A DNA stretch of 62,832 nucleotides, counting the filler, from Hausera hauseri (lineage: Eukaryota), in the NCBI GenBank assembly GCA_046269625.1. It is 10 parts of 10 records of this genome, joined end to end, with 100 filler letters (N's around TTAATTAATTAA, not from the genome) between each part and the next. Parts side by side here need not be neighbours in the genome. Positions count along the whole stretch, not along the records: positions 43,082 to 47,594 come from JBJURY010546565.1; 9 more parts are not named here. The stretch is one strand, 5' to 3'. Positions 3,431 to 61,154 of the stretch are shown piece after piece (position 1 is the first letter of the stretch; every line of letters starts with the position of its first letter). The notes beneath the pieces were generated by a model, which was not told the origin of the DNA, did no database searches, and saw only the letters and a program-made list of their open reading frames with translations. The translations under genes were made by a program, and so were the position numbers.

Positions 3431-3445
3431 TTTCAAATAATCTGA

Positions 3446-27362: not shown

Positions 27363-27455
27363 TCACCACCTCGTGGCTAAGTTGATAACGATAAGGATGG
27401 AATAAATGAAAATCACGAAGTAGACAGTGATTTTGCTATTCAGTTTTGGTATGAA

Positions 27456-28556
27456 TCAGACGTTGTATAACCTCGATGTTTCTCTACTTACTGTACTTGC
27501 TGAAAGTGACAGTTTTGTGATATGTCTTTGCTTTTGTCTCTGTTTGTTGAGATGCTTTGGGAGGAAAGATGTTACAATCTGTCGAGTTAAGTGAAGTGTC
27601 TTGCTGAAGCAAACTAGGAGAGGTAAAAGTAGTGACCGACGGTGGATGTTAGGAATTGTCGAAGGGATTTCCCAAAGATAAAGGGTTAGAGGGAAGAATA
27701 GTAACGGGTGAAAAAGCGGGAGGAAAAATGGAGTAGTGGTATGGATAGGAATAGTAGGTGAAGTGGATGTGTGAACAGAAACAGGAACAGGAGAAAATGG
27801 AGGAGTGAGAAAATTTGTCGAAGCTTCAGTTGTAGAGGTGTCGTCTACAAAAAATGCAGGTTTCACATTATTTATATGGACTGCTAGTTCCTTTCCGTCT
27901 TTGAGAATTACAGCGTTGTGAGAATGTAGTTGAATTAGCTTGTAAGGCCATAGATACTGCGGTTCAAAACCAAACGGTGTTTGATTCCGTAGCCAAACAA
28001 ACTTTGCGGAATACAAATTGTCGGGTAAATACATTTTATTGTTGTGTAGTATTCTACAGAACGAGTCTTTACTGACCGCGACGAAATTGTCCTGCACTGC
28101 CCTAATCGTTTCGTCTGTAGGTGTATTATCTAGGGCGGTTAATTCAAACAATGAACGAACAGGTGCTCCAAATAAAACTTCGGTAGGTGAGCATCCTGTG
28201 GAAGTGGATGGCGTGTTCATCCAACCAAGCAGAACCAAAGGAAGAAGAGCAGTCCAACTACTGTTGAATTTGGCGAGAATTTTTAGCGACGTTTTCAGGG
28301 TCCTGTGGAATCTCTCAATAAGACCAATCGATTGGGGATGATAAGGCGTAGTGTGTATATGACGGATTCCCAATCTATTTACGAGTGATTTGAATAGGTT
28401 GGACTCAAATTGGGGGCCTTGGTCCAAAATGATAAGTCCAGGAGACCCAAACCTGCTGATCCAAGTGCGGATGAAGACATCGGCTATTGTATCTGTGTTA
28501 GTGTTCCGTAGAGGGACAGCTTCTGGCCAACGTGAAGCGCGATCCATCATGGTCAA
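27456..28556 (-). CDS. Ty3/gypsy integrase catalytic core with GPY/F-like region and S/T/P-rich tail (fragment of pol)
   Basis: DRASRWPEAVPL, IILDQGPQFES, TTPYHPQSIGLIERFHRTLK; HIDIVGPLP lies immediately upstream. Confidence 0.9.
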   Translation of the reverse strand: MTMMDRASRWPEAVPLRNTNTDTIADVFIRTWISRFGSPGLIILDQGPQFESNLFKSLVNRLGIRHIHTTPYHPQSIGLIERFHRTLKTSLKILAKFNSSWTALLPLVLLGWMNTPSTSTGCSPTEVLFGAPVRSLFELTALDNTPTDETIRAVQDNFVAVSKDSFCRILHNNKMYLPDNLYSAKFVWLRNQTPFGFEPQYLWPYKLIQLHSHNAVILKDGKELAVHINNVKPAFFVDDTSTTEASTNFLTPPFSPVPVSVHTSTSPTIPIHTTTPFFLPLFHPLLFFPLTLYLWEIPSTIPNIHRRSLLLPLLVCFSKTLHLTRQIVTSFLPKHLNKQRQKQRHITKLSLSASTVSRETSRLYNV

Positions 28557-31500: not shown

Positions 31501-33459
31501 TGATTCAATTGCTGCTCAATAGAAGTATGTTGTTGATTGTCATAGGTCCTAATAGCGGCTGATATGATGGGTTGTGACTGGATTTGTAAGACTTCGTGTG
31601 CTTTATCTGCCAATTCAGCCAGTTTATCTAAGGCTGTAGAATATTCAACAACTATGAGTAAAGTTGTAATCTGAATGGGTAAGGCATTAAGGAAATATCG
31701 TCGAAGTAGATCCGGATTGTATTCCTTGGTGACGCCTAAAGTACGAAATTGGGCCAACGAGGTGCGTAGGAAATCCCTAGGTTTTTGTGTCCCCATTGCG
31801 TTTTCGTTAAAGAAGCGCTGTATTATTGAATCAATTGATGGTTTTGTCTGTTTTAACACAACTGAACAATTGGGTATAAGGGTCAGAGTGCTGAAAGATA
31901 TCCAGTAAGTTGTGGATTGAGGTCTTTATGGAATTTGGTAGAAGATAAAGTAGATTATGGGCTTTGGATAACGAGTCTGTGATACCGTTGAAAAGTAACC
32001 AGAATTGATGGAAGTGGAGCCGGGTTTTGCTAGTCTTCTCATTGTCTATAAAGTATTCAGTGCAATGTGGTGTAGTGCGGATAGGATTTTTGTGAGAAAA
32101 ATTTGCATCGGTTGAAGTAGGTGGATGGCTTAATTTGGGATAGTAGATAATGGATTTCGGTTTTGTGGTCACCTTATAGTTGACGTCACTGGTTGATGGT
32201 GAAATCATACTGCCGCGGATTCTAGTGTTGATATGTATACACAGAAAGTTATGAGAGACCATGATGTGTGGGAGGTCGGTTAAAATGCAACCGTTGTCGG
32301 TCAGATAGAAATCGCTGAAGACGGAGGTATTACGAATGATAACGTATAGTTGTGATGTCTCGATACGTTGTCTGACATGTACTGTTTGTATTAAATTATT
32401 ATTAACATAAAGGTAGAGGGGGAATGATGGTAATGTACTCTAAACCATGTAGTGTGATATATCATTCGGTGTTAAGAGAGTTGCTTTGAACGTTTCTTTT
32501 GAATATATCCGATCTGCGGACTCACTATGGTTTATGGATCTGTAACCGATGCATATTAAAAAATAACGACAATAACTAGGAGACGGATTCTCTCTATAGT
32601 CAGAAGCACTAGTCGGATACTCGCTGTCATCAGAAAAAGAAATGAGGATGACTTTGCTATAATGTGCCTTAATTCCACCTCGTCTTATTGCAGATATATT
32701 AATCTCTGTAGATTCATCAGTGTCGGATTTTATAGGTTTGGCGACGTATTCAGCGATTGCTATCTTGTTTTTGCATTGTAATATGCAACATAGTATACGC
32801 GTCTGTAGTAATGAACGATAAGATAGCAGACTTTTATGAGGTGAATGGACAGGAAAGGTGACATGAAAAGAAAACTTTAAGTAAATGAATCATAAGTAAC
32901 GACCGCAACATTGGGCTGTGGGAAAGGAGTGGTGGTGTTGTGCCAACAGCGAACAATCTAAGAATAAAATCATACGAAAAAAACGGAAAAGGGAATGATT
33001 AACAAGAAAAATAAAAAAATGATTGCTCGACGAATAGAGCATAGTAACAAATCCCACCCCATCGTGTACTGGTCTCTCCATGATTGGCAGTCTCGTTTTC
33101 CGCTGAGGGCACAGCAAGTCGGCTTCTTTACGTCGTGTCGATCTACGGGCGGTCTGTGTGTACCACCACTCTTATTGAACCAACAAGTTCGTTATATATT
33201 GTCTGTTTATCATCGTATCTTGTATGCTTGCCGTAGTTTTACAATCATTCTGCTTGTTCCACTCTGCGGTCTAGTAAGGATAATATCGTCAGTCGACGCA
33301 GCTGTTGTTGTTCATGTTTTATCGGTTGTTTCATTAGACTGTTGTTCGTATTGACTTCATGACTCGATGACAATTCGACATTTCGTACGACTGTTACGAC
33401 GTTGGGCAATTCGGATTTTGGACAATGAGTAACGACATACGAACACAGTTGTGATGTTA

Positions 33460-34335
33460 CAAATGGGATAATCTGGACATTTCAATATGGCATAACATTC
33501 TCTCCAACACGGGCGATAATCGCGGCAAATCAACGAACTGAACGCAATATCGAAAACTTCCCTATCATTTTTGCCCAAGGCCTGTCGAGCAACGAGTCTC
33601 AATGCTTCTGCCTCGTTGTAGCGATTATTCTGCGACTCGTCGGCACAAATATCGACCGGTTTCTACGATTACGTCGACTTGCCGATAGAGCGATTTGTTC
33701 GCCTGTAGACAATTGGCCAACAACTGAAATTTATGCGGCCATATTCCCCACTCGACAGGGACAATCGAACATTTATATTTGTTAAGAAATTCGCAACATT
33801 TCATCAGACGGATCTCGCCATCGATATCTGATGAGATGTCCTCCAATAAACTAATACTGAATTTCGCCAATTGGAAATTGCTATCGCGACTTGATACGCT
33901 CAAATTTACGTAATTACGAACTACCGCACAGATGTACCGTGATAATTCATAGAAATTGAGCAGTGTGCTGACATGGGAGTTTGTTGTGTGACAGGTCCAT
34001 AAATTCTGCTGCCAATATAATTTTCTGTCGATCAGCTGACTCGATGAGCGACTGCAACACATTAACGTACAGCAATTTCGGATGAATGCCGTTCAGTACA
34101 GTCGATACACAATTCCAGATCGGTGAGCATCGTCTTGATGAGATTGTGATTGACAACTGCGAATGTCTGAACGCATTGCAGTACGACGTTCGTAAGCAAA
34201 TGCTCGACAACATCACAATTCATCCGTTTGTCATGAATGAACCTCAAACTCTTTTTCGATCGATATTTGTCCAACACCGTCAACACTGTTACATACTTGT
34301 TCAATGTCGTTCCTATAACCTGTAGATTATTGTGT
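33460..34335 (-). pseudogene. NBAS (Sec39-domain) gene fragment, intronless and frameshifted
   Basis: LQSLIESADRQKIILAAEFM; VVRNYVNLSVSSRDSNFQLAKFSISLL..IDGEIRLMKCCEFLNKYKCSIVPV..LANCLQANKSLYRQ; VARQAL..D..L...Y..CW..C follow recalled NBAS motifs (REYFNSS..DSCMDLARCCLQLI..EELDLI..LEEFGVKILPL). Confidence 0.7.
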
Positions 34336-34339
34336 CCGC

Positions 34340-34786
34340 TCAGTGGAAGTCCACAGACCTTCAAATTTTCATCCTCGTTGTTTATATAAACAAATTTTAA
34401 TATTTCCAGCCAAAGAAAATTTCCTTCATCATCAAATTGCCGTTTTGCTATTTCTGATGTTATGTCGATTAATTTCTTTCTAGTAAGAGCTGATTTATCT
34501 GTGAGAATCAACTGTAAAAGTTGAGTTTTGATTGCATTTTGTGATTCAAACGGTAAATTTTGAAAAGCTTCTTCATAATTAACGTCTAACAGCCTTCTAC
34601 ATGAAACCCCGGTAAATACCCTGTTCTTTTGACTTTGCGGATCATTGCTTTCTGATATGACAGTTAATAAATAACTAAACTTAAGTTGACATTGAGTTGT
34701 TTCGTATATTTGCTCGGTATTTGACCGAATATCATTTTCACGACTTTGCAAACTTTCCAAGACTTAAAATTTTGTAAATCTGCCAT
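34340..34786 (-). pseudogene. Importin-5 (karyopherin beta-3/Kap121) N-terminal HEAT repeats, fragment
   Basis: LQSRENDIRSNTEQIYE, RRLL..YEEAFQNLP.E.QNAIKTQLL, RKKLIDITSEIAK.QFDDEGNFLW.EILKF match the IPO5 N-terminus; frameshift near the start. Confidence 0.85.
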
Positions 34787-35081
34787 TGTGTAGGATGTTT
34801 CAAAGCGAATTAAAATTTTAAATATTATGAAAATAAACGTGTATGGAGTATTCATAAAAAAACTGTTCGCTTTGAGTTGGTTTAATAAAGCCTGTTAACC
34901 AGTGAGTGTTGTAACCGGTGGGTGTTGTAACATTAAAGCAGCTGCTGTCACAGGTGTTTGACATCTGACTAAATTCCTCTTTTCTGAACGAGGTTGATGC
35001 GTTAATATTATTGTACTTTTCGGGCATATTTAAAATCAAAAGAATTTGGCCGAATCTGATCATTGTGGTTTGATTGGTATA

Positions 35082-35726
35082 TTATTTTGTAAAATTACCG
35101 TTGGATGTTAGTGATATTTCGTCATATTTCTGAACGTTGTTTTCAGACACCTGGTTGAAGTTTGTATGTACTGGTGTAGCAACTCGTAACAAATCGTCGT
35201 AATATTGAATAAGAATGACTGAGGCAGTATTTTGGAGAGAGACCTCGGTCATATCTTTGTTTGCAATGAAAAACGTCGGTCCAAATATGAGGCCCAAATT
35301 ATCCGATGTGATTAAATTTGATCCCGAACGTTGTGCAACAAGATTCAATAAACTATAAGTGTATTTCAACACATTGTACTGAGGCACTAGTAAAGTCACT
35401 AATCGCTTTATAATTTGATTTAGATTCCCCGTCTTTCTGTAGATGACTATTGCCCGCAATATATCATCAATAGCAATGAATGGAATAATTCCACCGTGAA
35501 TTTCGTAAAGAAACGATTTATACAAACTGGTGTCATTGTTTATATCATTAATTTCCATTTCAATCGTTCGTTTTGCCGAATAGCTTGCTTTGATTTCATC
35601 CATCTTGTTTTGATTTCTCGATATTCGAAACGAACACTGATAAGGTAATCCATACGATATTTTTAAATATCCAAATATCAAAGTGAGATGGGGAACTTCT
35701 TTGTTATAAGAACATTCGAGAAGCAT
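35082..35726 (-). CDS. RhoGAP-domain protein (fragment or retrocopy)
   Basis: FRIS (arginine finger), SLYKSFLYEI..GIIP, YNVLKY..LL.LV..S..NL.TSDNLGLIFGPT. Confidence 0.8.
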   Translation of the reverse strand: MLLECSYNKEVPHLTLIFGYLKISYGLPYQCSFRISRNQNKMDEIKASYSAKRTIEMEINDINNDTSLYKSFLYEIHGGIIPFIAIDDILRAIVIYRKTGNLNQIIKRLVTLLVPQYNVLKYTYSLLNLVAQRSGSNLITSDNLGLIFGPTFFIANKDMTEVSLQNTASVILIQYYDDLLRVATPVHTNFNQVSENNVQKYDEISLTSNGNFTK

Positions 35727-36177
35727 ATTTAAATCCTTTCCAAAGACATGAAACTCACAATTATATGTCTTGTTTATTTTTAACAGATTTCTGATTATTG
35801 TGCAAAATCGGATGTTTCGTATTTTCTGGTATACTGTGACACCAATGTGGGTCTGGTGAAAATTCTGTAAATGTAGTTAACCCTGCATTAAAAACAAAAT
35901 CTTGTAGCGGCAACTAGTTATAAACTTTTTTAATTTCCATAACAAAATCATTCAATTATTCTATAACTTTATCATTGTTGTCAATATTGTCATAAATTAA
36001 TATGAATTGTCATCTGCAGTTCCAAGTATAACCAGACATTTCTATTCTTTCTTGTTGAGGAAAACGATAACCAATAGCGAGATATAAGTCCGAGGTTATA
36101 GGCCGAAATAATCGATGAATATTTTCACTTTGGCAGAACATTGTGTAAAATCTTAACAGCGATATATAAATTCGAAT

Positions 36178-37309
36178 TGTTGTGATCCTGATGAAGTACT
36201 CCGACACCATGAGATAAAACGCATCAATTCGTTGGCAATTGCAAAACAAATAACAGTGCAAAAAACGGTATTTACAGGTAACAAAAAATAAAATAAATAA
36301 AGGAACGTTACTTCGTTGGGCACAACATCACCCCCGTGGCAAAGTGTGAACTATACAGATAAGACGGGATACAAAACGAACACAAAAACGGAACAGTCTA
36401 GAATAGCTATGTGGTGCTTTATTAGATGATTTAGTGTCGATTGATGGACTGTAAAGATGAAAGTAAATACGAAACAAACGCAAAACGAAATGATGTGAAC
36501 TAACTATACTGTCTTTGTATGTACAAGGTGTTGTATACCTTCAGTATTTAGCACTCTACTGTAAGTACTGAAGGTGACCGATTTGAATTTTTTTGTATCG
36601 TTGAATCTGGTTGACAAGTTGGTGGAGATAGAACTATGTCGGATGTCGTAGTTAAAGTTGGTGTATTGTTCAGAGACGGAGAATGGGCTGGAGGTGAGAA
36701 TGTAGGAGAAACTAGGAGAAAAGTGGTGAGACTAGTGGTAGGAGTTTTAGGGGTAGGTTCTAGTAGCGGAGTAGATGAAGGGTTTGAAGGAATAGAAATT
36801 GAAACAAACCGTGGCGTCAGAGAAGGTGTATCAGGTTCAGTTTGAGGTGTAGCATCAACAAAAAAGGCGGGCTTTACGTTGTTTATGTGCACCGATAGTT
36901 CCTTGCTGTCTTTAAAAATTATGGCATTGTGGGAATGTAATTTCACGAGTATGTAAGACCCAGAATACCGTGGTTGAAAACCGCACGGTATTTGATTTCT
37001 CAACCAGACGAATTTTGCAGAATATAGATCCTCCGGTAAGTATGTTTTATTGTTATTGAAGATCCTACAGAAGGAATCTTGGCTGATTGAAACAAAATGG
37101 TCTTCTGCTGATCGGATAGCTTCATCTGTCGGTGTATCTTCTAAGGCTGTTAATTCAGACAATGAACGTACAGGTTTTGGAAAAAGGCTTCGGTAGATGA
37201 ACAACCTGTCGAGGTAGAAGGTGTATTACGTTAACCCAGAAGAACAAGCGGAAGGAGAGTAATCCAACTGCTATTTGATTTTGCGAGGATTCTCAATGAC
37301 GTTTTTAGT
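36178..37309 (-). mobile_element. Family A copy 3: integrase C-terminus, PPT and short 3' LTR (36178-36327)
   Basis: ORF 36548-37204 is homologous to the integrase tail of 27456-28556; minus GGGGGTGA|TGTTGTG...CACAACA gives a 150-bp LTR with 7-bp inverted termini. Confidence 0.8.
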
Positions 37310-37549
37310 ACACTTTGTACATAAATATGTACTATATTGCTCCGAATTGACAGCACCATTCGCACACCTAAGCGGCGGCAAAAAATATCAGCCAATCTAG
37401 TGGGCACCTGAATTGGTCGACAAATTAGATAAGCTACGCGAAGGAATCAAAACCGTCGATATTCTAGCTTTCCCCAAGCCTGATGCAGAACTCATCCTTA
37501 CTACAGACGCGTCAACCACTGCAGTAGGCGCTGTACTCCACCAGATCTA
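37310..37549 (+). pseudogene. Inverted family A RT/RNase H fragment
   Basis: HFVHKYV..LTAPFAHLSGGKK..ILAFPKPDAELILTTDASTTAVGAVLHQI, opposite in orientation to the adjacent integrase. Confidence 0.85.
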
Positions 37550-42980: not shown

Positions 42981-45834
42981 GNNNNNNNNNNNNNNNNNNN
43001 NNNNNNNNNNNNNNNNNNNNNNNNNTTAATTAATTAANNNNNNNNNNNNNNNNNNNNNNNNNNNNNNNNNNNNNNNNNNNNTGATATAAGCATGATTGTC
43101 GAGATGCAGGATTTACGAAGATATGTAAGGAATATGGGCGAATCTAATAACCCACAAGTAATAAAGGCCAGAAAGGAATACGAAGAAAAGCTACATCAAA
43201 TGGAAGTTTATCATGGGTTAAGAGAACCAAAAAGGGAATACGAAAAAGCAATAGCACCCAAGAGTACTAACATGGCCAGAAAGAAAAATCTAGATCAAGC
43301 AGCGAAAAAAGAGAAGGAAGAAGAACCGACTACGCCTTCAAGTGTAGATTTGGACGCAGATACCGAGGTCGTGCCTCCAAATAAAGACAAAACAACAGAC
43401 GAGGTTGAAAGTGAATTCACTGGGCCATTAATACTTAAGATAACCAAGAATAGAGGTAGGAGCCCTTCTCTTAGGAGAAGGTCAAGAACTCGTTCACGGT
43501 CATCTATAAAAAGGATGTAGAAAAGGAGGAAGACTTCACCATCACTTTAAGAGATGAAACAGAGTTAAAAACTCCTGTTAACGCAAGACGTTCCTGAAAC
43601 AACAAACATTCCAAATATCGATGAAATTAATGAAATATGTCCGTTGCCGCCTAATGAAGAGGAGTCAAAAGAGGAAAAGTCTATTAAAACTACGAAGATT
43701 AGAAAATCTTGGGAAAATGCGAATGAGCTAACAGAAATAAGAGACACTCTAAACGATCCAGAAAGACTACCTGAAAGCTTGCAAAAGCTTCAGCAAATGA
43801 GCAAGCGGTTGGACATCTCAAGAAAATAACAATTCATAGAAAAGTTATATAAGAAGCTTAAAACTGGCCTCCAGAAGGGGGAAGAAGACATACTGTATGA
43901 AATGCACGAAACGCCGCAAGACTTGATAAAAACTTGGCAAAATAAATTAGAACTGTGGACAATGAGTGATATTGATTTTACGAAAATATGGTGGAATAAA
44001 AACGAACCGTTTCTCGACAAAGTTAATCAAGCGCAAGGATTGTTAAACATACTAAAGAGTAAACCAAAACTAAAACGTGTGAAACGTAATTTAGAAGGAT
44101 TGCTACATGAGATCGAAGAAGCAATGATTTCTTATATTCACAATAAGCCAGTATACGAACTTACCGATGCCGACTTAGAAATATTGAGTATAGCCCAAAT
44201 CGACATTTTTTAATAGAAATGTGCAGTTTAATAAAGGATAAACCGTGGAAAAACTTAGATTTAAAAACACGTATTGAAAGAAAAAATGAAATACGAGCCA
44301 AAATTAACGACTTAAGGATCGGTGTAGTCCACTCTGAAAATATAGAAGTACAAAGAATAATACGCGCTTGCCTTCTTGAACTAGATGAATATAAAGAAGA
44401 GTTCAACTACGTGAAACAAATCATAGAATTTGTACGAGGACCAGATCATGAACTGGAAGAAGCTTCTGCAGCATTAGACGAGATAATATACTTGAAACTA
44501 ACAATATCTAAACAATTGGAGAAGTGGATAGATTTGTTACTTTCCGTAGCCGAAGTGATTAACGAACGATTAAGGGAATTCACCGTGGTTGAGCCTATAA
44601 TGAAACACCAATTAGAAGAAATGCTAATAGATATCGGTACGATGGAAGATGAAACGAAATTGCGAATTAAATTCGAATCATTTCGAGAACTTGAGTTTAT
44701 GAGCCAGGATCAAAATCAAACAATACTGACAGAGATATATAATATGATAGAAGAGAAGGACTTCTACAGAAAAGAAACAAGTTAAGTGATCTTCAGCGAA
44801 GTTTAGTAAACATCCGTTGGGAAGGAATACAGAACCTAATACAGAAACCACTAAAGGAAATCTCTGTACAGGAGATAGAAACATTAGAGGTATGTAATGA
44901 CCACCGGATTGCTCTCGCGCAAACACTGCAATATATACAGAACCCAGTTGAATGGTGACCAGGCTTTTACTTACATTGCCACTCCGAACTAACCGAAATT
45001 AGAAATGATCCTCAACTGACGAGCGAGGAAGCCAAGTTCGTAACTAGGCTGATGGACGCAATAGATCCGGATGCCCAAGTGTTAAAACAAACGTACAAAT
45101 TAATCTCATTATTAACAGAAATGGCGGAAATTGACTAAATAGTAGCGAAAAGACTAACAAATCGGATGCGTGTGATAAAAAAACCGTTTACGCTCCGAGA
45201 AAAGACAACGCGAATTAAACGAATTACTAAGAGAAACGGAAATTTATAAGAATAAATATTCCCTTACGGAATCGGAAATTAATAGAAAGATGGAATTTAC
45301 ACGAAGGTGGCAGAGATAGAATCGCAGAAGTGACTAGTTACCAAGAAAAAGCCTGGATACAACCAGAGGAAATGTGTCGATTAATAAAGCTGATAAAACA
45401 AGCTTGGGGAAACGGTGATGGATTTAGGGTATTCATCATGAAAACTCTACAACCGCAATTAAGCGAATTACGCGAAGAGTCCAGGTCGGACATGCGGCAC
45501 TAATGAACTATGAGTTACCTGACGCAGACAATGAAGCCGAATGGATGAATATCTCCAAGATCTAACCGAGCAATGTCAGAGAACACAAATACATATTTAT
45601 AAATCACCTACTGGTGCACAGAAGACGAAAATCGACGTACAAATGCTAATCGATCCATCACTAAATGAAAAGGAATTGAGTGGTATGTTCAAAGTAAACA
45701 TAAGCGAAGATAAATTAAGGAAATTGATTCTAACTCTGACTAAGTTATCAAGTTAAAATACCGCATGCAATGCCGTACCTAAACTCTAAATAAGAGAATA
45801 CGCTAAAATATTGAAAAATAAACCGGAAGCGTAA

Positions 45835-46060
45835 ATTAAAGTGAAAGTATTGTCTAAAGGAATGGATGATGAGGAATTTGAATGCACTACCTATATTACT
45901 GTTGGGGACATAAAGCAACGGACAATAGATAAGAATGGTAGAGAAGGAGTCAATTACCGACTCTATTTCAGAGGTAGAATATTAGATGAGTCAGAGTTCT
46001 TAATAGACGTAGGAATAATACCACTCGAAGCAAATCGGATAATAGCAATAATTACTAGTG
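45835..46060 (+). CDS. Ubiquitin-like domain within the family B polyprotein
   Basis: TVGDIKQRTIDKNGREGVNYRLYFRGRILDESEFLIDVGI aligns without gaps to ubiquitin [40 protein letters not shown]; no C-terminal GG. Confidence 0.7.
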
Positions 46061-46754
46061 AGCAAACCAAATACAAAGCCACAAGGAGGGCACATACAGA
46101 ACACTGTGTTGGAAAAATTATGGGAATTCAGGACGTTGCAATGTACTTTGAATACTTACCGACGATGAAGACAAACTGCAATATGATAGAAACTTGGTCT
46201 CGCTGAGTAAAACCTTACCACCAGTGAAACCAAAACGGCCAGTCGGAAGACCAAGAAAAATAAAAGAAGCAGACTATAATGCAGATTTGATTAGGGAATT
46301 AAGACAACTATCAGTACCCATTCCAAGTTCAGATAATGAAGAATTAATCGAATTAATGAAAGACTTAATAAGCATAGTTAACTATACCGGACTACAAGGT
46401 GACACACTGTCCGAAAAAGAAAGACTAATATTTAATGCAGCTCGGACCATGAAAACTTCTCCATTTAAATGATCTAAAAGCACCCTCCCTGACGAAACAG
46501 AGATTGAGAGAATTATGACAGACAATACGACGGAAGAATTAAGGAATGTCTTGGTATATTTTACGGTGAGAACTAACCCTCCCCGAGAAAACGAATTTGA
46601 AAAGGCAATTAGATTAGCTAGAAAAGCTGCGAGAAGGGTTCTCAAAGAAATAAAGTGGACTAAATTGTTTGCAAAAGAGGAAAATGCAAAAGGGACTAAT
46701 AAGTTAGAAAATATGATACGAAATGTCTCTTTAAATAGAGGCAATGAATCCAAC

Positions 46755-47594
46755 TGGTTAGTCAATCTGCTAACAATAATGATGTTACTAAAACAGTTAG
46801 GAGCAGTCACTATATACGACTGTGATAAATTCAAGATGGGTCAAAAATATTCCCTAATGGATCTGGAAACATGTGAAGATGCCCGACCACACAAGTTAGA
46901 GACAAGAGAGAAGAACTACTTCTTATACCAACAACAAGAGCTGATATCGTTAGACGGAATTGAATGCATGTTGCGACAATCTCGCAGTATCTTCCACTTT
47001 GGATTAATACACGGACATTGTTCAATAATCAAACCGACAACTGCAAACAGGCTAGAGACACTGAAAGAGTACAACGGGACAATATTGAATTAGAAATGCA
47101 AGCTGGTAATATAATTAGAGCATACAGAGTTGTAGCCGGAAGGTTAGACATGCATACCGGACACTGTAGTGGAGCTGAATATGATACTGGCAAAGGATTA
47201 GAACAGAATGTAGTAGTTGTGGATTTTTACGAATCAGAAATGAGAACACAGAAAGTAATGTTTCATAGCGTCACCAAGTTATATACGGAGAACCAAAAAT
47301 GCCATTTACAAGATGGAACTTGTGTTTTTCGGAGCTCAGTTATAATATGGGTACCTCCCTCAGGAAGAAGCTGTAATTTTATTAAAATTAAAGAACTTAA
47401 GTTTAATGAGACCACCGGGAAAAGATATGTGGATAAATTAGATACCAATTCAAGGACGTGCGAAGATGTATTAGAACATTCTACGCCCACAATATTAATT
47501 TGCGATAAACATGGACTAAAATTTATCAAGAAGGAAATGATGTCACGTTGTGATGTGGTGATGTTTGCTAATAACTACGAAGCGTTCTTCGTAG
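46755..47594 (+). pseudogene. env: Chuvirus-like envelope glycoprotein, N-terminal half with internal signal peptide
   Basis: WLVNLLTIMMLLKQLGA|VTIYDC..YSLMDLETC..YQQ..ECMLRQSRSIFHFGLIHGH, GHCSGAEY..NVVV, C...DGTC..IIW.P..C, RCDVVMFANNY; starts in frame inside ORF 46515-47093. Confidence 0.8.
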
Positions 47595-48844: not shown

Positions 48845-51800
48845 TTAATGAAATACAAAGAAATCAAACCTGTCCAAAGATTTAAAATCCAAGTCTCCAA
48901 ATTCACTCCAATTCGGTAATCGTCGCAAATCAATTGGTAATGAAGTCGGTGAAGTACTGACGTATTGACGCATTATTGAACCAATTTTCGACACCAATGA
49001 TTGAATCTCCGGATCTACATTTGCCACTTCTAATCGACATTCAACATCATCTTTTGTTGCATCTTCCATCAGAATCTGACTCAAAAGTAATTTGTCAACT
49101 TTGGACTTCTGATCAATGTTCTCCAATGATTTTGATAGAGCTGTCGTCAAACTTCCTCGTAACCAATCGGTGGGACCAAGTAAATCCCGCATGAAGCATC
49201 CAGTGGCAATCAAACCGTAATTTTGTTTATCAGTAATGTCATTATTGCATTCGGTAATGAAACGCATTACATCGTTTCTAATTTCAAATATCCTTTGGGT
49301 CTGACAATAGAGCTGTTTCAGTACGCTTTCAAAATCCTTTCCGTCCTGTATCATTGAACCTGCTTGAAACAAAGTATTGATACTTCCGATATTCATTTGT
49401 GGTACAGATTTTTTGGCTTCCAACATCAATTTATGGTAATTTATCAACTGGGCTGCACGATCAATATCAATGTTGAGACCTCTCGTCAAAACCGACAAAA
49501 CATCGTTATCCGTGAACGTCAGACTGTTATTGTGAGATGTAAAGGCTATTTCTATGCCTCTGTTTCGCATGGCCTTGGATATTTCCCCTCCGCAATCCGG
49601 ATCAAGAACCAAGAACAATCGAAAATTCGGATGTGGTTTAATTTCTTCGAGTTTATTGTCATCGAGGAGACCTCTTTCCACTAAAAGCAAACTGCCGTTT
49701 GTTTCCAACAGACTGTTCAATCGATCAAGAACCGAACCGGCACAAAAATTCACGGTATCCAACACAAGCCACTCTCCGTTTTTAACCGCATCAATTAAAA
49801 TGCTATTGACCCATTTAAATGTCCCACCATGTTGTTGCTGTTCGAAAGAACCTAACAAGTCCGTCGCATCCATTGATGAATTCATTGACATGACCCTCAA
49901 CTTATTCCCTGTCAGACTTGCAAGCAAATTGATGATACTAGTCTTACCAGTACCCGATGGTCCAACCAAAATCGACACCCACTGCATGGAAATGTTGAAC
50001 ATTATGGATTCCATGTAACTCAATAAACCCGATAAAATGATATTCTTGTTCAGAAACTCGATTTGTTCAGGAGTTCTCTGGGAATTTACAGACAATTTTG
50101 CTCGGCCAAGTCTGAGATTATTCGAATTAAGATGCAACTTGAGATTGCCTTGAACTATATCACATCTACCATATTTCTTGGAGATTTCTTTGAACAAATT
50201 TTCAACTTCGTTTTTATCCGACTCAACTCGAAATCTATCAATAAATACTAACTTAACGAAGAAGGACGGTTCGTAATTTTTCGATTGAAATTTCACCATC
50301 AAGTCACACCATCTACACAAATCTCGTAAATTGAATTCCCATGGTGAACCCTTTGATCCGAATTTCCTTTGAACACAAACATTCAGTCGTAACGACTGAA
50401 CAAATTCAACCATAAATTCAATCGTATCTCGTGCGATCATAGGAAAGAGATGTGAAAGAATCTGCACATAATCGTCACCTTCTAAACAGCTCATGTAAAC
50501 TTGTGTGAACCTGTTGACAAATGATTTCGGTAAACCCTTTCTTCCACCACCTTCACTCAACGGATTCTGACACGCAAAGAGCCGCGTTGCTCCCGGTTTT
50601 ACGAGAAACGTCTGATTCAATTCCGGTATGAAAACTTCCCCTCTGTGATCTAAACAAGCATTCAGACTTTCCAATACCGACTGGGAAGCCAAATTCATCT
50701 CATCGAGTAAAATCCAATCGCCGTTTTTCAAAGCTTGCAACAGCGGTCCGTCCTTCCACGATAATTGCCCAGCCGAACCGTTGTCGACCGGCAAAAGGCA
50801 ACCGAATAAATCATTGGCATCGGTTTGTTCGGATAGATTTATTCGTACCAATCGGTAACCGACGATCTTTGCTAAATGTTGGACGAGACTTGTTTTCCCA
50901 ACGCCAGGACTACCTTCGAGCAGCAGGGGCTTCTTACTGATTTGTAAAGCTCTCAAAAGTTTAATCAAATTTGACTTGACCGTTTTACTACTAAAGCTAT
51001 ATTGGCCAGATTCGTGATGGTTGTTCTTGACCGGTCCAAACGGGATGTAAAACGGCTTAATACCGATCGAATCCGTTTTAACTTCGAACTCGTCCGTCGA
51101 CATCTCGTCGGATATTTCCATCAAATCCGGTAAAAATTGCTTAATAAGGTTCCGGAGATGACCAAGAAATTCATTTGTAATTTGGGCTTTATTCAACTTC
51201 TCACTGATGGCATCCAAGATGACCATTTCCGCACCCTGTACAATACCATCTATCAAACTAAGTCCGTTAATTTGACTACATTTGATAAACTCAACCCAAG
51301 TAAGTAAGTCTCGTATGGTAACTACAGAGAATTGTGTTCGTGTCGAAGATTCCACTACTTTTTTCAAAAACCAAACCAAAACCTTTCCAACATTCTGTCC
51401 AACAGACATTTCAAAGTTCGACAAATTCCGGGATGCGATATTCACCCAATCGGAAAACCCTTCGTCGGTAGTATGCCATGAATTCGACGGACACCAAATT
51501 TCTGTAAAACGATTTCTCAATGCTGGTGACAGTTCTTTTTTACCGAAATCCCCACCGGGATTCATTGTGGCAAAAACCTGGAAACCATTAGCAGCTTGAA
51601 TTTGAACAGATTTTGCGTTGTCGATGGAATCTATGTACGTATCGCCGTTTTCAACCAGTGTCAGTTTTCGATCAGTTTCCAAAACGCTGTTCAAACGTTC
51701 AAGAACCGAATCATCGGCCAGGGAAATTTCATCGATCAAAAACATTTTCCCCTGTTTCATTGCAATCACCAGTGGACCATCAACCCATTCAAACAAATGG

Positions 51801-52058
51801 TTCTGTGTGGGATTTTGAGTTGGTCGAAGCCCACCCAAAAAGTCGCTCGCTTCAGTATGCATGTGGCAATTTATTGATAACAGACTTTGATTTTGAAGGG
51901 ACGCGACTAATTGACAAACAGTTGTTTTGCCACATCCAGTGTTACCGACTAACAATGCTGGTTCGTTACATTCAATTGATCGAATAAGTAACACGGCCAT
52001 TCGACGGAAATCATGATTCAATTCGAGATTAGAATCATGGACATCGATACAAGTCTTT
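48845..52058 (-). CDS. MDN1: Midasin/Rea1 AAA ATPase, large exon covering AAA4-AAA6 and the start of the linker (partial)
   Basis: Three Walker A motifs GNTGCGKT, GSPGVGKT, GPSGTGKT; DEISLADDSVLERLNSVLE, TMNPGGDFGKKELSPALRNRFTEIW, GGGRKGLPKSFVNRFT, GSPWEFNLRD; likely GT donor just before the apparent stop. Confidence 0.97.
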
Positions 52059-52158: not shown

Positions 52159-55100
52159 TTACGGAGGAGCGCGTAGTAAACTCGCATTCTTTTTCATCCA
52201 TCCATTCAGACGACACTTTTACATTTATTGTTACCTCGGGTTTAGCCCTTAAGATTTTAGAATATTTTTATTAAAAGTTTTGGCACAGTACTATAAATCG
52301 TATTTTCATTATATAGTTTAGAGTAGGAACAAGTTGTCTAAACCTATTTTCAGTAATATTTAGGTTAATTAGTTCAATTAAATCTCTTTCCGTTAACCCT
52401 GAATTCCCGATTCTGTAGGTACATTTCCGTTTTATACAGGTGTACTGGAATTTTCGGATTTTCGGCAACTATTGCATTTAAATATGCATCCAATTCTAGA
52501 TCGTTCTCACTTTTTGGCGGTCGGTAGTCAATTATTGGCGTAACTGGATGTCAGATTGCGTTTGCATTCCGTACTGTTTCTCTTACTTCACGTAGCTTTT
52601 GTTGCATTTTGATCATTTGTGTTGTCTGGAAACAACGTCCAATGCCGGAAACATGATGCAACAATGTTAACAACTGAGAGTTCGTCTGCCTGTATAAATC
52701 CTTATTTTGGTAATAGGTTAATTCGGAGGTTACATCGCGTTGCCATCTTTGTACGAATCCTGATTTATTGGCTATTTCTGATTTTGTAGGAGCGTATTTA
52801 TTTCTATAGACTTCCAATTCTTCAGTTAACTCATTTATTTTTGTTTTCCTTTGGTCGGTACGAATTTGAGTTTCCTGAGTGTGACGTATTGGACTTTGTA
52901 GTTGTCTCATTTTCTGCTCAGTGATTTTTGCCATTTCAACTAACAACAGCGTTAATTGGCTTATTTCGTTTAAAATTTCGGAGTCGGGATCGATTTCTTC
53001 GATTAATTTCTTTATGAAGCTAGTTTTCTCCTCAGTGAATTGTTTTCTCTCGATGATCTTCCATTGTCTCTATTAATTCAGTATGCCGTTTTTGATCTGT
53101 CCCAGATATCCAATTAGTTGAATCCTGCAGGAATTTCAACACATCTGTAATAGAGTTTTCGTAGTCTGAACAGATCTCTAAAATCTTCAGTTCTTGTGTT
53201 GTGATCTCGTTTATGGGTTTCTCCGTCAAATACCGGATTCCATCTAAACGAATATTTTTAATTCTCGAGTAGAGATCACATGTCATATATTGTTTCGACT
53301 TGAAATCCGCTTCTTCAATCATTTTGTATATCTCGTTTAATATTGCCATTTCTTCGTTTTTATTCATAAATTTTAATTGTCTTAATTCGTTTAGATGCAT
53401 TCGAATATCTGCTTCTGCTCTCATAGTATTAAGATTCTGCAAAATTTCGTTCATCTCTTTCTTTAACTCAAGTTGGACGTGCGGTATTCTTCGATACGAT
53501 TTCGCATTCTGGTGTTAAACTCCATAATAAGTCGGACCATTTTTTCAACTGATTGGCTATAACTGGTTTAACCATTTTTGCTCTCCAGCATTTTATAGCA
53601 GTCTTTCATCTCGTCGTCTGGGCCTGGTATAAATCATATGATATACTTTGCGTAATTAAATTCGTTTTTATACTTCTTAAGTTCTAAAATATAGGTTTTG
53701 ATTATATTTACCGTCTTGTTATTTAGATTCAATATTAAATTTCTCAATTTATAAATTTCTGACAATTTATCGTTTTCTCATTTAACTCGACCTTCGATAT
53801 CTTCGTTTTGTCTTGGCTCAGTAATTACAACTTTAATCATTTCTATCAGAAGGAGAATATCTGCATGATCGATGCCCATTATTTCTAAATCAATTTCATT
53901 ACGTAAATTGAATGGTTTTTCCTTCATATAGCTGACTATATAATGTCTAATTCTAGTCATCAGTCCCTGCAAGTTGCTTTAGTTTTGGGTGGGCTTCTAG
54001 AGCAGTCAGTAATTCCTGGGCTTTGATTATTTTCTCTTCGGTTGTGCTTTCCGTTTTGGCCCAGAACTCTGGGGCTCTAATTGCACTCTTTACCCATAGG
54101 TTTAATTTATATTTCCCTTTTTCTATTAATTCCCGGGGTAATTCTTCAGATTCATCTGAACCGATTATCTCGTCCATTTTTCCATCATTGTATGACATTA
54201 GCTTTTTAAAAATCCGCTCGGCGAATTGTTATTCATTACCAGAAGTATCTATTTATTCGGCTATGCGGTGAAGTTTTTCTGAGTTTTGCCGCATCGTTTC
54301 TGGGTTTATGGGGGCATATCTGATTTCTTTTAATTTGTCAGAATTTTTCAATCTCCATTTCTTTTTATCAAACTTCGATTCGATCGGGTTCATCCTCGCT
54401 TATAGGTAATGGACATGTCTCGTTTATCTCGCTAACGAATTCGATTGATCATTCTGCCATCATTGAAATATTAAGACTGAGTTCTACGTCGGTTTTTGCA
54501 GCGATTTCAGTCTTTTGTTTTCTCTAATTTTTCTTTAGTCATTGGGGATCGTAAACGATTTTTACATTTCCGTTTTATCGACAAGCTGCGACCTATTTTT
54601 CGTGATTTTAAGTATTAACGGATGCATAAATTCATTTTCATCATCAACTTCTAACCGTGTTCACTGTCTCGACTGTATATTCAGATTCTGTATCTAAGTC
54701 TACTTCAATTGACGTGTTCGGTTCATCCGGTTTATCCTGGTTCTTTTATTACTGGAACATTCTTTTTTCGTGCCATGTCTGTTCGTTTTGGTGCTATAGC
54801 ATGTTCGTAATCTGTTTGTGACTCGGTTAGCCCATGGTACACTTCCATCAATCGTAGTTTATTTTCATATTCTTTTCTAGCTTTTAAAACTTGTGGGTTA
54901 TTAATCTCGCCTTATATAATAACTCTAAATCCTGTATTTCAATAACCATGCTTGTATCACCTCGAGTGCCATAAATCGCTTCCAAGTTCTCGTTAGTCTT
55001 AATCATACTAGCTTTGCTAGGCTCGGTGAATGAAACGCTACGTGGATTTGGACGTGACATTGCGATTGTAACCTTACCGCAGGTATAGCAAATTAAATTA

Positions 55101-56530
55101 CCGCTTCTGCTGACTCTGTCGGCCGTCGTCATTTAAAGGTGACTTTGACCTGCTCATATTTCTGTTATACTGATTCGACGGACCTTGTCTACTATCTCCA
55201 TTGTGTCTACAATCATTGTTTCGGTTATCGTTATACCGGTTTCCGTTAAAGCTTGTATAACTCTTGATTCCTATCTGGGCTAAAATTTGACTTATTAGCT
55301 GAATTATTCGCAGTTAGGTCATTGCTGAGATTTCTGTTATTATAGCGGTTACTTCTATAATCATTACTGGCGTTCTGGTTTCTGCTTACATGGTTTCTAT
55401 TATTGTTGAATCGTCTATTATCCATACCACGGTTATCGTTCCAGTTTCTATCATTACGATCATTATACCTGTCGATCCTATCATTTTGTTTAGCATATTT
55501 ATGTAGTCCAATTTCTAGGTCTTGAGCTAACTGCAAGGTTTTCTCAAAGTTCTCTGGTCGGGCTAATATTAACTGTTTCACTAAATCCCTAGACTAGATA
55601 CCGTTTATTAATTGCGTCATCATGACGTCTAAATCAGGAGGACTTGCCTTTTCTGCGGCATCGCAATCTGCGTCGGTTTTAGCCTTAGCTACATTAGTTA
55701 TTCTTAATGTACTTACGTAACTATTTGCAAGTTTCATCAATGCAAATGCAAACTGGGTTACCGATTCACCCTTTTGTTGCGTTCTATTTTGAAATGCGAT
55801 ACATTTCTGCTGTGGTATTACTGTCGGTAATAGTTTACGATTTAAAGCTCCTACCAAGGAGGCCCAAGATTTCTTCTCAACATTGGTGAGTTCACTATAG
55901 GCATCAGCAGCTAAATTTTTCGAATATAATGAGACGTTTAATCATTACCTCAGGGGTAAGACTGGCACCTTCTGCATGCAATTTATAGGTTCTCAAAAAT
56001 TCATTCAATCAGTCCGGGTCGCCATCATACGCCGGCAGATTCACAGAATAAAATGTAAAGATATCTAGTTTCTGCGCTACTGCTTGATTATCTGCTGTCA
56101 TATTATTGTTTACGTTATTTGATGTGTTGACGTTACGAGATTTATTTCTCGGAATTTGGAACTCTTTATCAGTGTTTAAAACTATACTATTTAGATTAGT
56201 TACGGATAAAGAACATTTATCGATTACCTTATTCATACTATATAATTTGTTTCTTGTTTCTCATTGGTCGAAATTTTCCTTGCCGTTTAAAATTGGTTTT
56301 AAACTTTCGTTTAAGTATTCGTTCTCTTTAAATTGATTTACTTGTGGGGTTTTTCTTATATCCCAAAATTTAAAGTTCTCAAGACTATATTTCAATTATT
56401 CGATGTGAATGGCACTGATCAGCGGTGTATAATTATTTAACTCTCTAAGTCGAGTTTAACGAGGCACAAACTGTCCTGCTAGGGTCGCCAAATGTTATAG
56501 TTACTGTGGGCTATATATGTGGGCACCACA
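52159..56530 (-). mobile_element. Family B copy 3: LTR end - PBS - gag - zinc knuckle - unknown helical region up to the start of the UBL
   Basis: gag LPAYDGDP..QQKGESVTQFAFALMKLA..QLINGI..PENFEKTLQLAQ (55246-56100); degenerate CCHC LICYTCGK..IA (~55060-55100); then colinear homology with 43082-45900. Confidence 0.85.
56473..56490 (-). promoter_or_regulatory. tRNA-Arg-type primer binding site TGGCGACCCTAGCAGGAC
   Basis: Follows ...TATAACA + TT; resembles the 412/mdg1-type PBS TGGCGACCGTGACAGGAC; about 0.4 kb upstream of gag. Confidence 0.75.
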
Positions 56531-58346
56531 TCACCCTGGTAAAGTCAGTTTTGCCAGGCGGACCCAACGGGAGTCGTTTGGTATCCAGAATTTTGTGCTG
56601 TCAACCGGCGAAACCAAATCAAGCTTCAGTAGCCAGCACTCGAGACCTCTTGGTGTGATCTGACTTGTTCAATGGTGTATTAGAAACATTCGAGGTTCTA
56701 ATAGCTGTTGCGGATGTATTCTTTTTTGACTTACCACTAAATACTGCTCATAGACCACCAGTACGTTTATTTGGTTTGTTCACCACGGATTTTTTACCCA
56801 CTGTAATCTGTCGTTGATATTTGGCTTGTTCCGCCATACTTGTATATTTGGGAACTGTGTTTTCAAACTTGGATGATGTGTGTTTGTGGAAAAAACAGGT
56901 GTAAGCGTCAACTTATCGCCGAGTTCTGCTGGTAGATCTGGCATGGATGATTGTTCGTCTGCAGTTTTCATTACAGAAATAATTTGATTGGTGAAATGTT
57001 GAATACCATCGTGTCACGAGAATCGATAGAACTACTTATGGACGACATATTTTTTTTCAAATGAGGAGAAATTGATTGCCTGTTCACTGTTGTCAGTGCG
57101 GAATTCGACGAACTCGTCAGAATTAATACACTCCGTAAACTCATTAACTTCCGGAGATGGCTAAACTGTTTCGATGTCTTCGTAAGGACATACACTGAAA
57201 AATGTGCGAGTTTCGCCCACGTCCAGAGTAGGTACTTGAAAGCGGATTTGATTGCCTTCTACATCAAGTCAAATATCCTGTCCTGAGATGACAAACTGAT
57301 GTCAGATTATGTCTTTTGCCGCATCCGTCACGATTAAAAGTGTGCCATATCAGTGCGGTGTGGAGGATGGCGCGTGATTGTTTCTGACACCAATGTGGTT
57401 TTCAATGAATGACTGAAATTGTTGTGCCATTTGAAATAGCCGATCCGTTCGGTTTGATTTTAGTTGAAATTATTTCCAAAGGTCAGCAAAATATTTATCC
57501 ATAAATTGCAGTCGCTTGCTCCTGTCGAAAAATTTTGTTCTGTACGACACGTAACGTTCGATATTTGACACTGAGGTCTTATCGAAATTTCGGAAATCTT
57601 TCAAATATTTGTAATCACATAGACGAAGACATTCGATTAATTTTCGGCATCCTAATTTATTGCGCATATACTCAGAAAGTCCATTATTTGTTATAAATTC
57701 CATATCCACAAATATTGATGATGATAAGCTCTAATTTAGGAAATCTTTACAGAATCCGTAATTAAAGAACAACTAAATGATCAAACTAAGTGTTTATTCA
57801 CAATAAAAATGCCACGAAAACTTTTTATTAAAACAAAACTTTTCAAGAATAGACAAATATATACAAAATTATTATATGGGCCAAAATGAGCAACACAGTA
57901 GTATATAAAGTTGGAAGTTGACAATAAATGATGTCTATGTATAAATTACAATTTAAATTATTTACGTAGTTAAAAGCTGAAATTATAGCAGTAAAAGTCA
58001 TAAATTCGTTACAATTATCTCATTAAAATTACCAATTGCTGCAATTAATTTGGAATGCACAAAGGNNNNNNNNNNNNNNNNNNNNNNNNNNNNNNNNNNN
58101 NNNNNNNNNTTAATTAATTAANNNNNNNNNNNNNNNNNNNNNNNNNNNNNNNNNNNNNNNNNNNNATAAAAATCAATCGATAATCGATAAACGCAACATA
58201 AAATATATAATCTATCATCATGAACAACAAACACAACAGAGTAACATTCAATCATTTAAAGCTCCTATAATCAATCGAATCTCATTTTGAAAACACAAAA
58301 AGACACACACACACACACACCAAACAACAACAAAAAAATAACCTCA

Positions 58347-61154
58347 TCAAACATTGACCTTCATGCATCGGCACTCAATTGCCTCATCCCCACTGCCAGT
58401 AAATGCAGTCGTACAACGCATCAATGCCGCATCCACTTTTATCCGTGCCGCAGCCAATTTATCCTCGTGTGCCATCAGCCAAATTCGACTCTTCTCATCG
58501 TCAACACTGGGAATGATCGTTATCCCTTTCTGGTCAGCACCGATTGTCTGCCGTTCCTCCAACAACAATTCAACAGCACGTGACAAATCACCAGGTCGAT
58601 CCAATTGGAGGAAAGCAGTAGCAAATTGGACACAGCCGAATAGACATTTCAAATCGTCCAAATCAAGATCGGAAGGCACGCAAAGCAAGTCGACGCAAAT
58701 TGGCGTTGCGCACTTCACAGCAGGTTTTTTCGGTGGTTCTTTCTGTGGCGCCGGCAGACCCAATGGTTGTCCCCATTGCGTTGCGCCGTCCGGAATGGCA
58801 TCTTTACCGTAAAATGACCCTTCCATCGGTAAATTGGACAAATTTGGTGCGCCACTCTGTTTGTCATCGTCCTCCTCATCATACAATCCCATCTGCCGCA
58901 TTTGATCGGCCGATAATTCCTCCGGTGTGTCGTCAAAGAAATCCCCTTCTCCGTGTTCAGTAATGGCACATTCGACAGTCCCCACAGCCACTTTACTTCC
59001 ATTGGCCGATCCAATCACTGCAGTTTGTCCTTCCTGTCCATCTGCAACTGGCACAGATTGTGTCGGTGCATCTGAGACGACTCCATTCACCTTTTTGTTC
59101 TCCTCTTTATCGATCTTATTGGCACCGACTGCTGGCTTGCTCGTTGGTTTTTTATTGGCAGCTGCGGCAGTTTTTGATGGTGGATTTATCAGTTTTTTAC
59201 TATCCGGCGGTGCTGGTGCTGCTGTTTTCTGCGGCGGCTGTTTCACCTTGCCCGCTGATGTTACCGGACCACGTACCGACCTGCCGCAGTCAATAAAATA
59301 ACACGAAATAACTCACTGCGGCTCCTGTGGCTTAGTCCCAACTGCCGATGACGATTGCCGCATTCCTGTGGCTGTTGCCGGCCGTTTTGGTGGGTCGTTA
59401 TCTGCAGCGGTGCCATTCATTTTCTGTCCCGTCGTTGTCGTCCGAGCTGATGATTGCCTCTTACCGGCTATACAAACATCAGCAGTACTGTAGAAGATAA
59501 TAAAATAACAAACCCGGCGGTACCTTTTTTCCTCCAGCAGCATCAACTGGAGTTTCCATGTGTTTCAGACAATCATGTGCTCCATAAAGTGCAGCAACAA
59601 CTGCAGATAGTGTCTTCTTTGGCTGACTGCGTGCACCGATGTAAAGCAGTCGCCGTACGGGCAATTGGCTAATGAATGGCCTCCACAGAAACAACACCGA
59701 TGCGGTAGCAGAAATTGGGCGGCTAGTTCCATCATTTGGATACTGGACAATTGAATGCAGTAGAATTTCATCACCAACTTACTTTTCCCTTGCCCCAGTC
59801 ATCCCAATGCCGCCGTACGTCCGCATCATCTTCCAGTGGCCCCAGCGCGATCAATTCCAGTGTCCCGTAGCCAATTTTGTGGAATAATTGAACCGGTTTA
59901 ACTGCGGCATGCGTCAACTCATTTTCAATCAACATAACTCACGCTGATTGGCAGCCACAGTCTGACAGGCTTTCCACTTGACGCCGATATGAGAAAATTG
60001 GGATCCGGCATGTCGGTAAGTCGACAACAAATTGTTGAATTCCTCTCGTAAATCCACACAGAACGGTTCCTTTTTCTCATGCGGCAGCTGTTTGTCGATG
60101 AATGGCGTGCCGGCAGGCAACAGCACGTGATTGATTTTCGTTGCACTATCAGTCACATCGGAGAGACCAAGTAGATTGCTATAACCAACATGGCTTAGCA
60201 GTCCAACATCGACAGACGACAGGAATTTGAAATGTTTGCGATACTCTGGTTTCCTCGTACATCCGGCGTTGATAAGCATGGAGAAACCGTCGAGTGACAA
60301 CAGTGCCGGTACGACACAACTTCCTCTGTCAAAATACATGTAGACAGTAAGATTGGTGTTTTTGATGAGGGAAACGTTGCTTGGGGGGTCCCACGGATGA
60401 ATTGAGGATCTCAGTCGACTGCAAATCGTCTCGATGAATTTGTTGATGTCTGAATTTAATTTCAATGATAAATTGATGAATAAAAGAGCAAATTTCGAAT
60501 GAACTAACCAAATTCAACCATCAAATCTCCATCAACTGCGCAATCCGAAACTGGCACAGAAAATACTGTCAAAACACCATTTTTCTTCTCCACTGCAATC
60601 CAGTCATCAGAAACGCTGGGAGTTGCCAAATAAACTTTCTCTACCCCCTGAAAAATGATAAAAATGTCAAGCAAACCCGCAAAATTACTAATTTGCCCGA
60701 CAAAAGAGACGCCAAGTCACTACCATAAAACAACCCATCCGATAAAATCCACTGACCAAACGGACTCGTCACGGGACCCAAATAGACGACAAATAAATTC
60801 ACAAACGCCAGTGATGCTGTCAAAGCAGTTATCAGCATATCCTTTGTCGCATTGTCCAACAATTCGAATTCGCAATTTTCCAACTCAGTCGGTTTATCTA
60901 AATCAGTAAATCGTAATATAGCATCATTAAAATAAGCACCTGTCCATTTGTAATCATTTAGTCCATGAAATACTTCTTTAATTGGAGTCTTTTTATTTAT
61001 TTCGTCAAATGCTGCACAAGCAAACGGAGGAAATTGTATAACAGATTTTTTTCAAATGATAAATATTACCTTTGAGTAAATAATTTCGTGCAGCATTTAT
61101 CTGACTGTCATTGGATAATTCCGATGTAATCAGCAGCAATTTCGATGATTTCAT
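58347..61154 (-). CDS. MAP1/futsch-family microtubule-associated protein, compact multi-exon gene
   Basis: GQWILSDG; ALLSLDGFSMLINAG..VDVGLLSHVG..NLLGL; LFHKIGYGTLEL; LFLWRP; WGQPLGLP; light-chain-like C-terminus PICVDLLCVP..ITIIPSVD..W..CMKVNV; GT-AG introns of 36-41 nt; start codon (61154) inferred. Confidence 0.85.

Follow-up and report, generated by a model that had tools for sequence, protein, structure and literature searches.

A ubiquitin-like domain under purifying selection upstream of the envelope region in a high-copy retroelement family of Hausera hauseri

The window analyzed here, a stretch of 62,832 nucleotides from Hausera hauseri (1–62832), comprises ten contigs chained by spacers of the form N44-TTAATTAATTAA-N44, and three of these contigs bear on the element described below. 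The first (43082–47594, plus strand) carries the copy of the ubiquitin-like (Ubl) domain that was analyzed, the second (52159–58065, minus strand) carries what the preliminary description termed copy 3 and is here called the second copy, and the third (1–8218, minus strand) carries a distant relative. Because the window consists of separate contigs joined through N-spacers, the two copies of the domain are not neighbors, and an apparent inverted repeat between them (43137/54911), together with the inter-copy distances, was set aside as an assembly artefact. Elsewhere in the window, two whole contigs (8319–13443 and 18011–26481) consist of tandem arrays (unit lengths 15 bp and about 69 bp). A contig of its own holds a host gene, seen as an intron-free piece of midasin spanning about 1,070 codons (48845–52058, minus strand), which has no connection with the Ubl domain. 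A fragment of a MAP1B MBL-like domain was also seen at 59929–60513 on the minus strand (E 5e-8, below cut-off), and intron-free host-like pieces lie at 33300–37549 (minus strand), upstream of a gypsy gag-pol (32000–27456) and after the integrase end of another copy; these include a RhoGAP piece (35082–35876, E 2.7e-18) and an importin-5-like TPR piece (34062–34763, E 2.8e-8).

On the first contig, a long helical or coiled region between gag and the Ubl domain, designated ORF-X (43082–45834, plus strand), is decayed by several stops and frame breaks, is collinear with 54959–52160 on the minus strand (43% identity over 426 codons) and matches no Pfam family below an E-value of 0.018; weak matches of coiled regions to TcdB_N and similar profiles (E 0.03–0.07) were treated as chance. 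ORF-X is followed by the Ubl domain, a beta-grasp domain of 76 codons lacking a di-glycine (45835–46062, plus strand), which is identified by Pfam, a shuffle test, a structural model and purifying selection. A spacer of about 230 codons (231; 46063–46754, plus strand), with one frame break and one stop, separates the domain from a signal-like hydrophobic stretch (hydropathy peak at 46758–46814) and the N-terminal portion of a fusion glycoprotein of gB type (Monjiviricetes-like), which is cut by the contig end (46755–47594, plus strand). The spacer contains an AT-hook-like motif about 57 codons past the Ubl domain (46233–46268, plus strand; AT_hook E 0.09, below cut-off), no BCL2-like or other fold was detected in it, and the Atlas feature search returned no family for it. 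The envelope (env) region matches PF24664 with an E-value of 1.5e-6 and 27.0 bits, a score equal to the cut-off.

The second copy (52229–56260, minus strand), which is also decayed, is homologous to 43082–45903 and contains a gag-like region with a weak match to Retrotrans_gag (E 0.11 only), the remnant of a single zinc knuckle read from the sequence (Cys-x2-Cys at 55090) and ORF-X, which extends for about 950 codons from the knuckle to the start of the Ubl domain. The first 23 codons of the domain follow (52228–52160, minus strand) before the contig end cuts it, and the frame stays open where the first copy has the stop that directly precedes its domain. In the distant relative (5849–8218, minus strand), the rest of a gB-type env with a membrane anchor (PF24664, E 1e-12 and 1.6e-13, 47–50 bits) is followed, about 580 nt downstream, by a retropepsin (RVP, 20.8 bits against a cut-off of 20.7). 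The order gag, ORF-X, Ubl, env, protease is thus pieced together from three contigs, which provide the gag-Ubl, Ubl-env and env-protease links, the last through env sequences that are only 32% identical (8188–7712 in the relative), and the gag-to-env stretch amounts to only about 1,650 codons. The reverse transcriptase (RT) at 1296–253 belongs to another gypsy family, common to 26582–37549, and the Ubl copies lack a linked RT; a putative RT start at 5505 in the distant relative does not match that RT, and neither a dUTPase nor an RT start was detected in the decayed region after the relative's protease. In the same contig (2931–5500, minus strand), the env-protease relative ends after about 5200. 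Host-like sequence with an Armadillo repeat at 3647–4102 (E 0.002) comes next, followed by another gypsy element, distinct from the relative and akin to 26582–37549.

All copies in the window are broken, several of the breaks being private, and no single record spans the contig that carries the Ubl domain. Near the domain, the first copy has stops at 45754–56, 45787–89 and 45832–34 and a frame break near 46160. This copy is dead, and its Ubl domain does not lie in an open polyprotein. The location upstream of env in a polyprotein, as initially described, hence holds with respect to env, while the polyprotein itself is not open in the first copy and must be deduced from other copies.

Sequence evidence establishes that 45835–46062 encodes a genuine Ubl domain, beyond what chance would produce. 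Its frame has no stops, against 11 in each of the other two sense frames, and Pfam ubiquitin (PF00240) matches it over model positions 1–59 of 72 with an E-value of 5.1e-5 and 23.4 bits, below the curated cut-off of 25.4 bits. Among ubiquitin-clan families, the only other match at E-values up to 1 is Rad60-SLD_2 (E 0.046), and the SUMO/Rad60-like family PF11976 gives none at that limit. A hidden Markov model (HMM) built from 51 Ubl domains of stored proteins assigns 27.5 bits to the peptide and 0.2 bits to its reverse; as the source sequences of this HMM had been found with the Ubl domain as query, shuffled peptides serve as its control, and the best of 2000 shuffles (1847 scored) reaches 7.0 bits. 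In the six frames of the whole window, nothing besides the domain scores above -3.5 with the same HMM. A search of solved structures by sequence returned 40 matches with E-values of 10 or less, of which 39 are ubiquitin or ubiquitin-like; the top-ranking single-domain chain belongs to a viral ubiquitin (E 0.021). The Atlas feature search, taken as a lead only, ranks unnamed clusters first (0.90–0.91), with ubiquitin-clan clusters at 0.86–0.88. A second, upstream Ubl look-alike noticed by eye at 45535–45831 (plus strand) was rejected, as its score of -1.4 bits is reached by 1744 of 1825 scored shuffles.

Aligned to a stored polyubiquitin repeat, residues 1–61 are identical at 15 of 61 positions and residues 22–61 at 13 of 40 without a gap; alignments to whole polyubiquitins, in which the domain was split across repeats, were left out. 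Overall identity to ubiquitin is only about 20–25%. Hydrophobic residues occupy core positions 3, 5, 15, 17, 23, 26, 43, 45, 50, 56 and 61, though not 13 and 30 in this copy, and several characteristic ubiquitin residues are replaced (F4 by Lys, L8 by Lys, I36 by Arg, I44 by Tyr, K48 by Arg and K63 by Pro). Neither Gly-Gly nor LRGG, the signature of a type I modifier, follows strand 5, and no Gly-Gly occurs in the frame of the domain from 43990 to the contig end. These results bear out the Ubl domain that the preliminary description had placed at 45835–46060, its missing di-glycine and the persistence of its first strands in the second copy; the gapless 40-residue match to the ubiquitin core pattern also stands, save for one letter displaced by one position (residue 30 is Thr, and the Ile is at 31).

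Structure prediction is compatible with this assignment only when Ubl rows are supplied. From the single sequence, AlphaFold yields a low-confidence model without a beta-grasp (pLDDT 60.9, pTM 0.45). With seven diverged Ubl rows in the alignment (19–28% identical), the predicted fold is a beta-grasp (pLDDT 77.6, pTM 0.67) with strands at 2–7, 13–16, 40–45, 48–50 and 67–74 and a helix at 23–34, and a Foldseek search with this model places ubiquitin and NEDD8 among the top five matches (TM 0.82–0.88), with viral Ubl models, including those of pestivirus polyproteins, also matched. As the alignment-based model is biased by its alignment, it speaks for compatibility and does not constitute independent proof. 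The ubiquitin-clan search and comparison of family copies that had been proposed as checks alongside structure prediction both turned out in favor of the domain, the former with a match below cut-off; the prediction itself did so only with the Ubl rows.

The domain belongs to a high-copy family. Relatives are present in two public runs from two studies with two organism codes, accounting for 0.20 and 0.11 of sampled words, and the records fitting the Ubl contig number 10,787 of 15.5 million in the first run and 1,060 of 9.55 million in the second, where fit means at least 80% likeness. Contigs below this likeness and variants under 12% thus escape notice, and the contigs are not independent. 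It is the abundance of these records and their coverage of 30 of 30 bins in both runs that indicate a high copy number. The stop preceding the Ubl domain (45832–34) is private to the window copy, given that nearly all depth differs at its first base (15,612 of 15,708 in 68 contigs of the first run, and 367 of 367 in 14 contigs of the second). The stop at 45754–56 is likewise private (1147 of 1238 and 200 of 200), and about half of the depth differs from the window at the frame break near 46160. The stops at 45787–89 and 46470–72 do not appear in the 40 substitution rows listed out of 1055, and at the position of the first of them the second window copy has no stop.

Across this family, the Ubl domain is under purifying selection and conserved at the protein level. 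The 566 and 51 records that cover it in the first and second run contain no indel and no joint, and the complete substitution table for the domain (39 rows at 37 places) has 30 of the 37 variable places at third codon positions (binomial p 3e-9). Among places with a share under 0.9 in the first run, 29 of 31 are at third positions; 27 of the 31 are synonymous transitions, one is a fourfold site, one is a first-position change in an Arg codon, synonymous if read with the listed letter, and only two change the residue (31 and 66), whereas 69 of the 228 possible transitions are synonymous. A multi-allelic, residue-changing place at residue 34 falls outside the 31, being one of the six places that the threshold classed as "private", and no amino-acid-changing place is listed for residues 35–52. 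Three stops interrupt the antisense frame with the same third positions. The two window copies agree with this pattern: 12 of the first 23 residues are identical, the differences are distributed 6/5/15 over codon positions, and the start of the domain has a pS of 0.94 and a pN of 0.24, compared to a pN of 0.34 over 426 codons of ORF-X. Synonymous sites between these two copies are saturated, which argues against one recent duplication as the source of all fitting contigs.

A host origin of the domain is likely, with no specific cellular donor among the matches. Word-based protein searches confirmed no relative among 88 candidates for the Ubl open reading frame in longer proteins, 224 for env in longer proteins and one for the Ubl domain near its own length, and a metagenome scan confirmed none of 81 pattern matches. 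A search of representative proteins gave 36 matches at E-values up to 0.001, all scoring through repeated stretches; in a Pfam scan of 12 of these, 10 were polyubiquitin-like, two were unrelated repeat proteins and none was a retroelement.

The reading that we favor, with a probability of roughly 0.4, is that the Ubl domain serves as a fixed, uncleaved docking surface for a protein of the host ubiquitin system, inside one long polyprotein running from gag to env. In intact members, gag, ORF-X, the Ubl domain and env would be translated in a single frame, as they are in Burro, a planarian retrotransposon. The part preceding the env signal stretch would stay cytosolic and be tethered to the membrane by that stretch, leaving the domain facing the cytosol close to the assembly site. 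There, the face formed by strands 3 and 4 (R42, Y44, F45, G47 and R48) might bind a host partner, candidates being a proteasome receptor, a p97 cofactor, a ligase or a deubiquitinase, and such binding could adjust how fast the precursor, or a host defence factor, is turned over. A precedent for host-directed cargo is provided by Burro, described as carrying MATH, BIR, BCL2-like and Ubi2/SUMO-like domains before env (PMC6431247). On the other hand, the canonical patches of ubiquitin are changed in the domain at L8, I44, I36 and F4. Moreover, no MATH, BIR, ankyrin or BCL2-like domain was found in the 20 pieces scanned with Pfam at E-values up to 1, nor upstream of gag, and since Burro's other ubiquitin-system domains were not found in the scanned pieces, the company that would suggest host manipulation is missing.

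The same observations can be read, with less probability, as those of a structural or assembly module that works on the element's own proteins, forming a stable unit in the cytosolic stalk and binding the nucleocapsid or the env leader. Purifying selection fits this possibility equally well, the altered receptor patches agree with it, and the putative nucleic-acid-binding motif downstream of the domain (E 0.09) would suit such a function. It has to contend, however, with a sequence whose nearest match remains ubiquitin itself, down to the exposed R42/G47 face, which in ubiquitin is read by host receptors. A parallel is found in coronaviruses, where Ubl1 binds the N protein, as seen in an N-Ubl1 crystal structure (PMC9938351).

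It is doubtful, by comparison, that the domain acts as a built-in ubiquitin mimic that takes the place of a late domain and recruits ESCRT for budding. The idea is attractive, because a glycine-less ubiquitin fused to a Gag devoid of late domains drives VPS4-dependent release, as stated in the accessible part of that study (PMC2958808), and because ubiquitination of the cytosolic env leader regulates particle release in foamy viruses, according to the available text (PMC3705266). The element has an env, and the three sense frames of either copy contain no PTAP, PPxY or complete YPxL, a weak indication in copies this decayed. Yet ubiquitin-driven budding required L8 and I44 in the experiments as reported in those available sections (PMC2958808), and with Lys and Tyr at these positions, in a domain so far from ubiquitin in overall identity, the case for the ESCRT engagement suggested in the preliminary description is weakened.

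A bolder combination of these ideas, which we consider improbable, would start from an errantivirus lineage of GAG-ENV-POL type that is compact, separate from Burro and acquired a ubiquitin-type domain on its own. The domain would act as a ubiquitin signal that is genetically encoded, resists cleavage and sits on the cytosolic stalk of a membrane-tethered Gag-Env precursor, allowing the precursor to recruit ESCRT or the proteasome machinery with no need for ligases or late-domain peptides. Were it true, this signal would be a natural counterpart of the engineered Gag-ubiquitin fusions.

Ubiquitin inserts also occur in the polyproteins of cytopathic pestiviruses, where they are near-identical to host ubiquitin. 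Cleavage by host deubiquitinases at an analogous signal is nonetheless largely refuted for the present element and close to excluded: the presumed polyprotein context and the fold matches to pestivirus polyprotein models, which reflect a shared fold only, are outweighed by the divergence of the domain from ubiquitin and by the lack of a di-glycine or LRGG, which makes the role in processing proposed at the outset unlikely. Chance resemblance, or a neutral passenger of one copy, is very improbable, for although the Pfam score lies under its cut-off, the single-sequence fold is not a beta-grasp and the Atlas ubiquitin-family matches stand at only 0.86–0.88, none of 2000 shuffles comes near the observed score, and the second copy and the two runs show the domain without indels and with changes that are almost all synonymous.

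The docking reading has its closest cellular counterpart in the integral (type II) Ubl domains of Rad23, Dsk2, Ddi1 and Parkin, beta-grasp domains without a di-glycine that act as docking surfaces. The domain resembles these in predicted fold and in the missing di-glycine. The pestivirus inserts and the baculovirus v-ubi are close to true ubiquitin and cleavable. With these forms and with Ubl1 of coronavirus nsp3, the domain shares a fold found in or beside viral polyproteins; unlike the pestivirus and baculovirus forms, it is about 20–25% identical to ubiquitin and lacks the di-glycine, and no sequence kinship with coronavirus Ubl1 was found. Among retroelements, GAG-ENV-POL errantiviruses with an HSV/gB-type env have been reported from Nematoda, Bryozoa and Platyhelminthes (PMC13524379), and the present element is like them in its gB-type, chuvirus-like env, apparently positioned before pol, and in forming multi-copy families. 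Ubiquitin is mentioned for them neither in the main text nor in supplementary file 1 of that work (0 occurrences in each), which does not annotate the gag side.

The nearest relation is with Burro (GYPSM1), giant gypsy-like LTR retrotransposons of planarians for which gag, Smc-like, MATH, Ubi2/SUMO-like and BCL2-like regions are reported, along with an env lying in frame between gag and pol and a region resembling dUTPase (PMC6431247). The likeness to that description extends to a putative N-terminal Gag with one or more knuckles (here a weak gag match and one decayed knuckle), a long Smc-like helical region, a domain of ubiquitin fold ahead of env (here by 231 codons) and a mononegavirus-like env between gag and pol, in an order that is here pieced from three contigs. 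The domain differs, however, in matching PF00240 and not, at E-values up to 1, the PF11976 family of Burro's Ubi2/SUMO-like domain, and Burro exceeds 25 kb, has long LTRs and resides in a planarian host, whereas the present element is known from contigs of 4.5–8 kb. The element would function as a compact version of the Burro type; an assignment to Burro itself is not warranted, because the cargo domains were not found and the contigs do not show size, LTRs or RT.

A ubiquitin-fold domain upstream of env is therefore not new in kind in such elements: although the initial description held Ubl modules not to be a standard LTR retrotransposon domain, the Burro report places a Ubi2/SUMO-like domain in the same position (PMC6431247). 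In the open-access literature, no paper devoted to Ubl domains in LTR elements was found, and in the literature that was found ubiquitin-fold domains of envelope-bearing gypsy elements are represented by one sentence of profile-based annotation, with no functional test, for Burro (PMC6431247). What is added here is direct evidence of purifying selection on such a domain across a high-copy family and a signature of ubiquitin type rather than SUMO type. Since the element seems to lack Burro's other cargo, the Ubl domain may be a core accessory module of these elements, and, as a soluble domain of 76 residues that is easy to express, it could reveal how elements with a gag-env-pol polyprotein engage the host ubiquitin system or bud.
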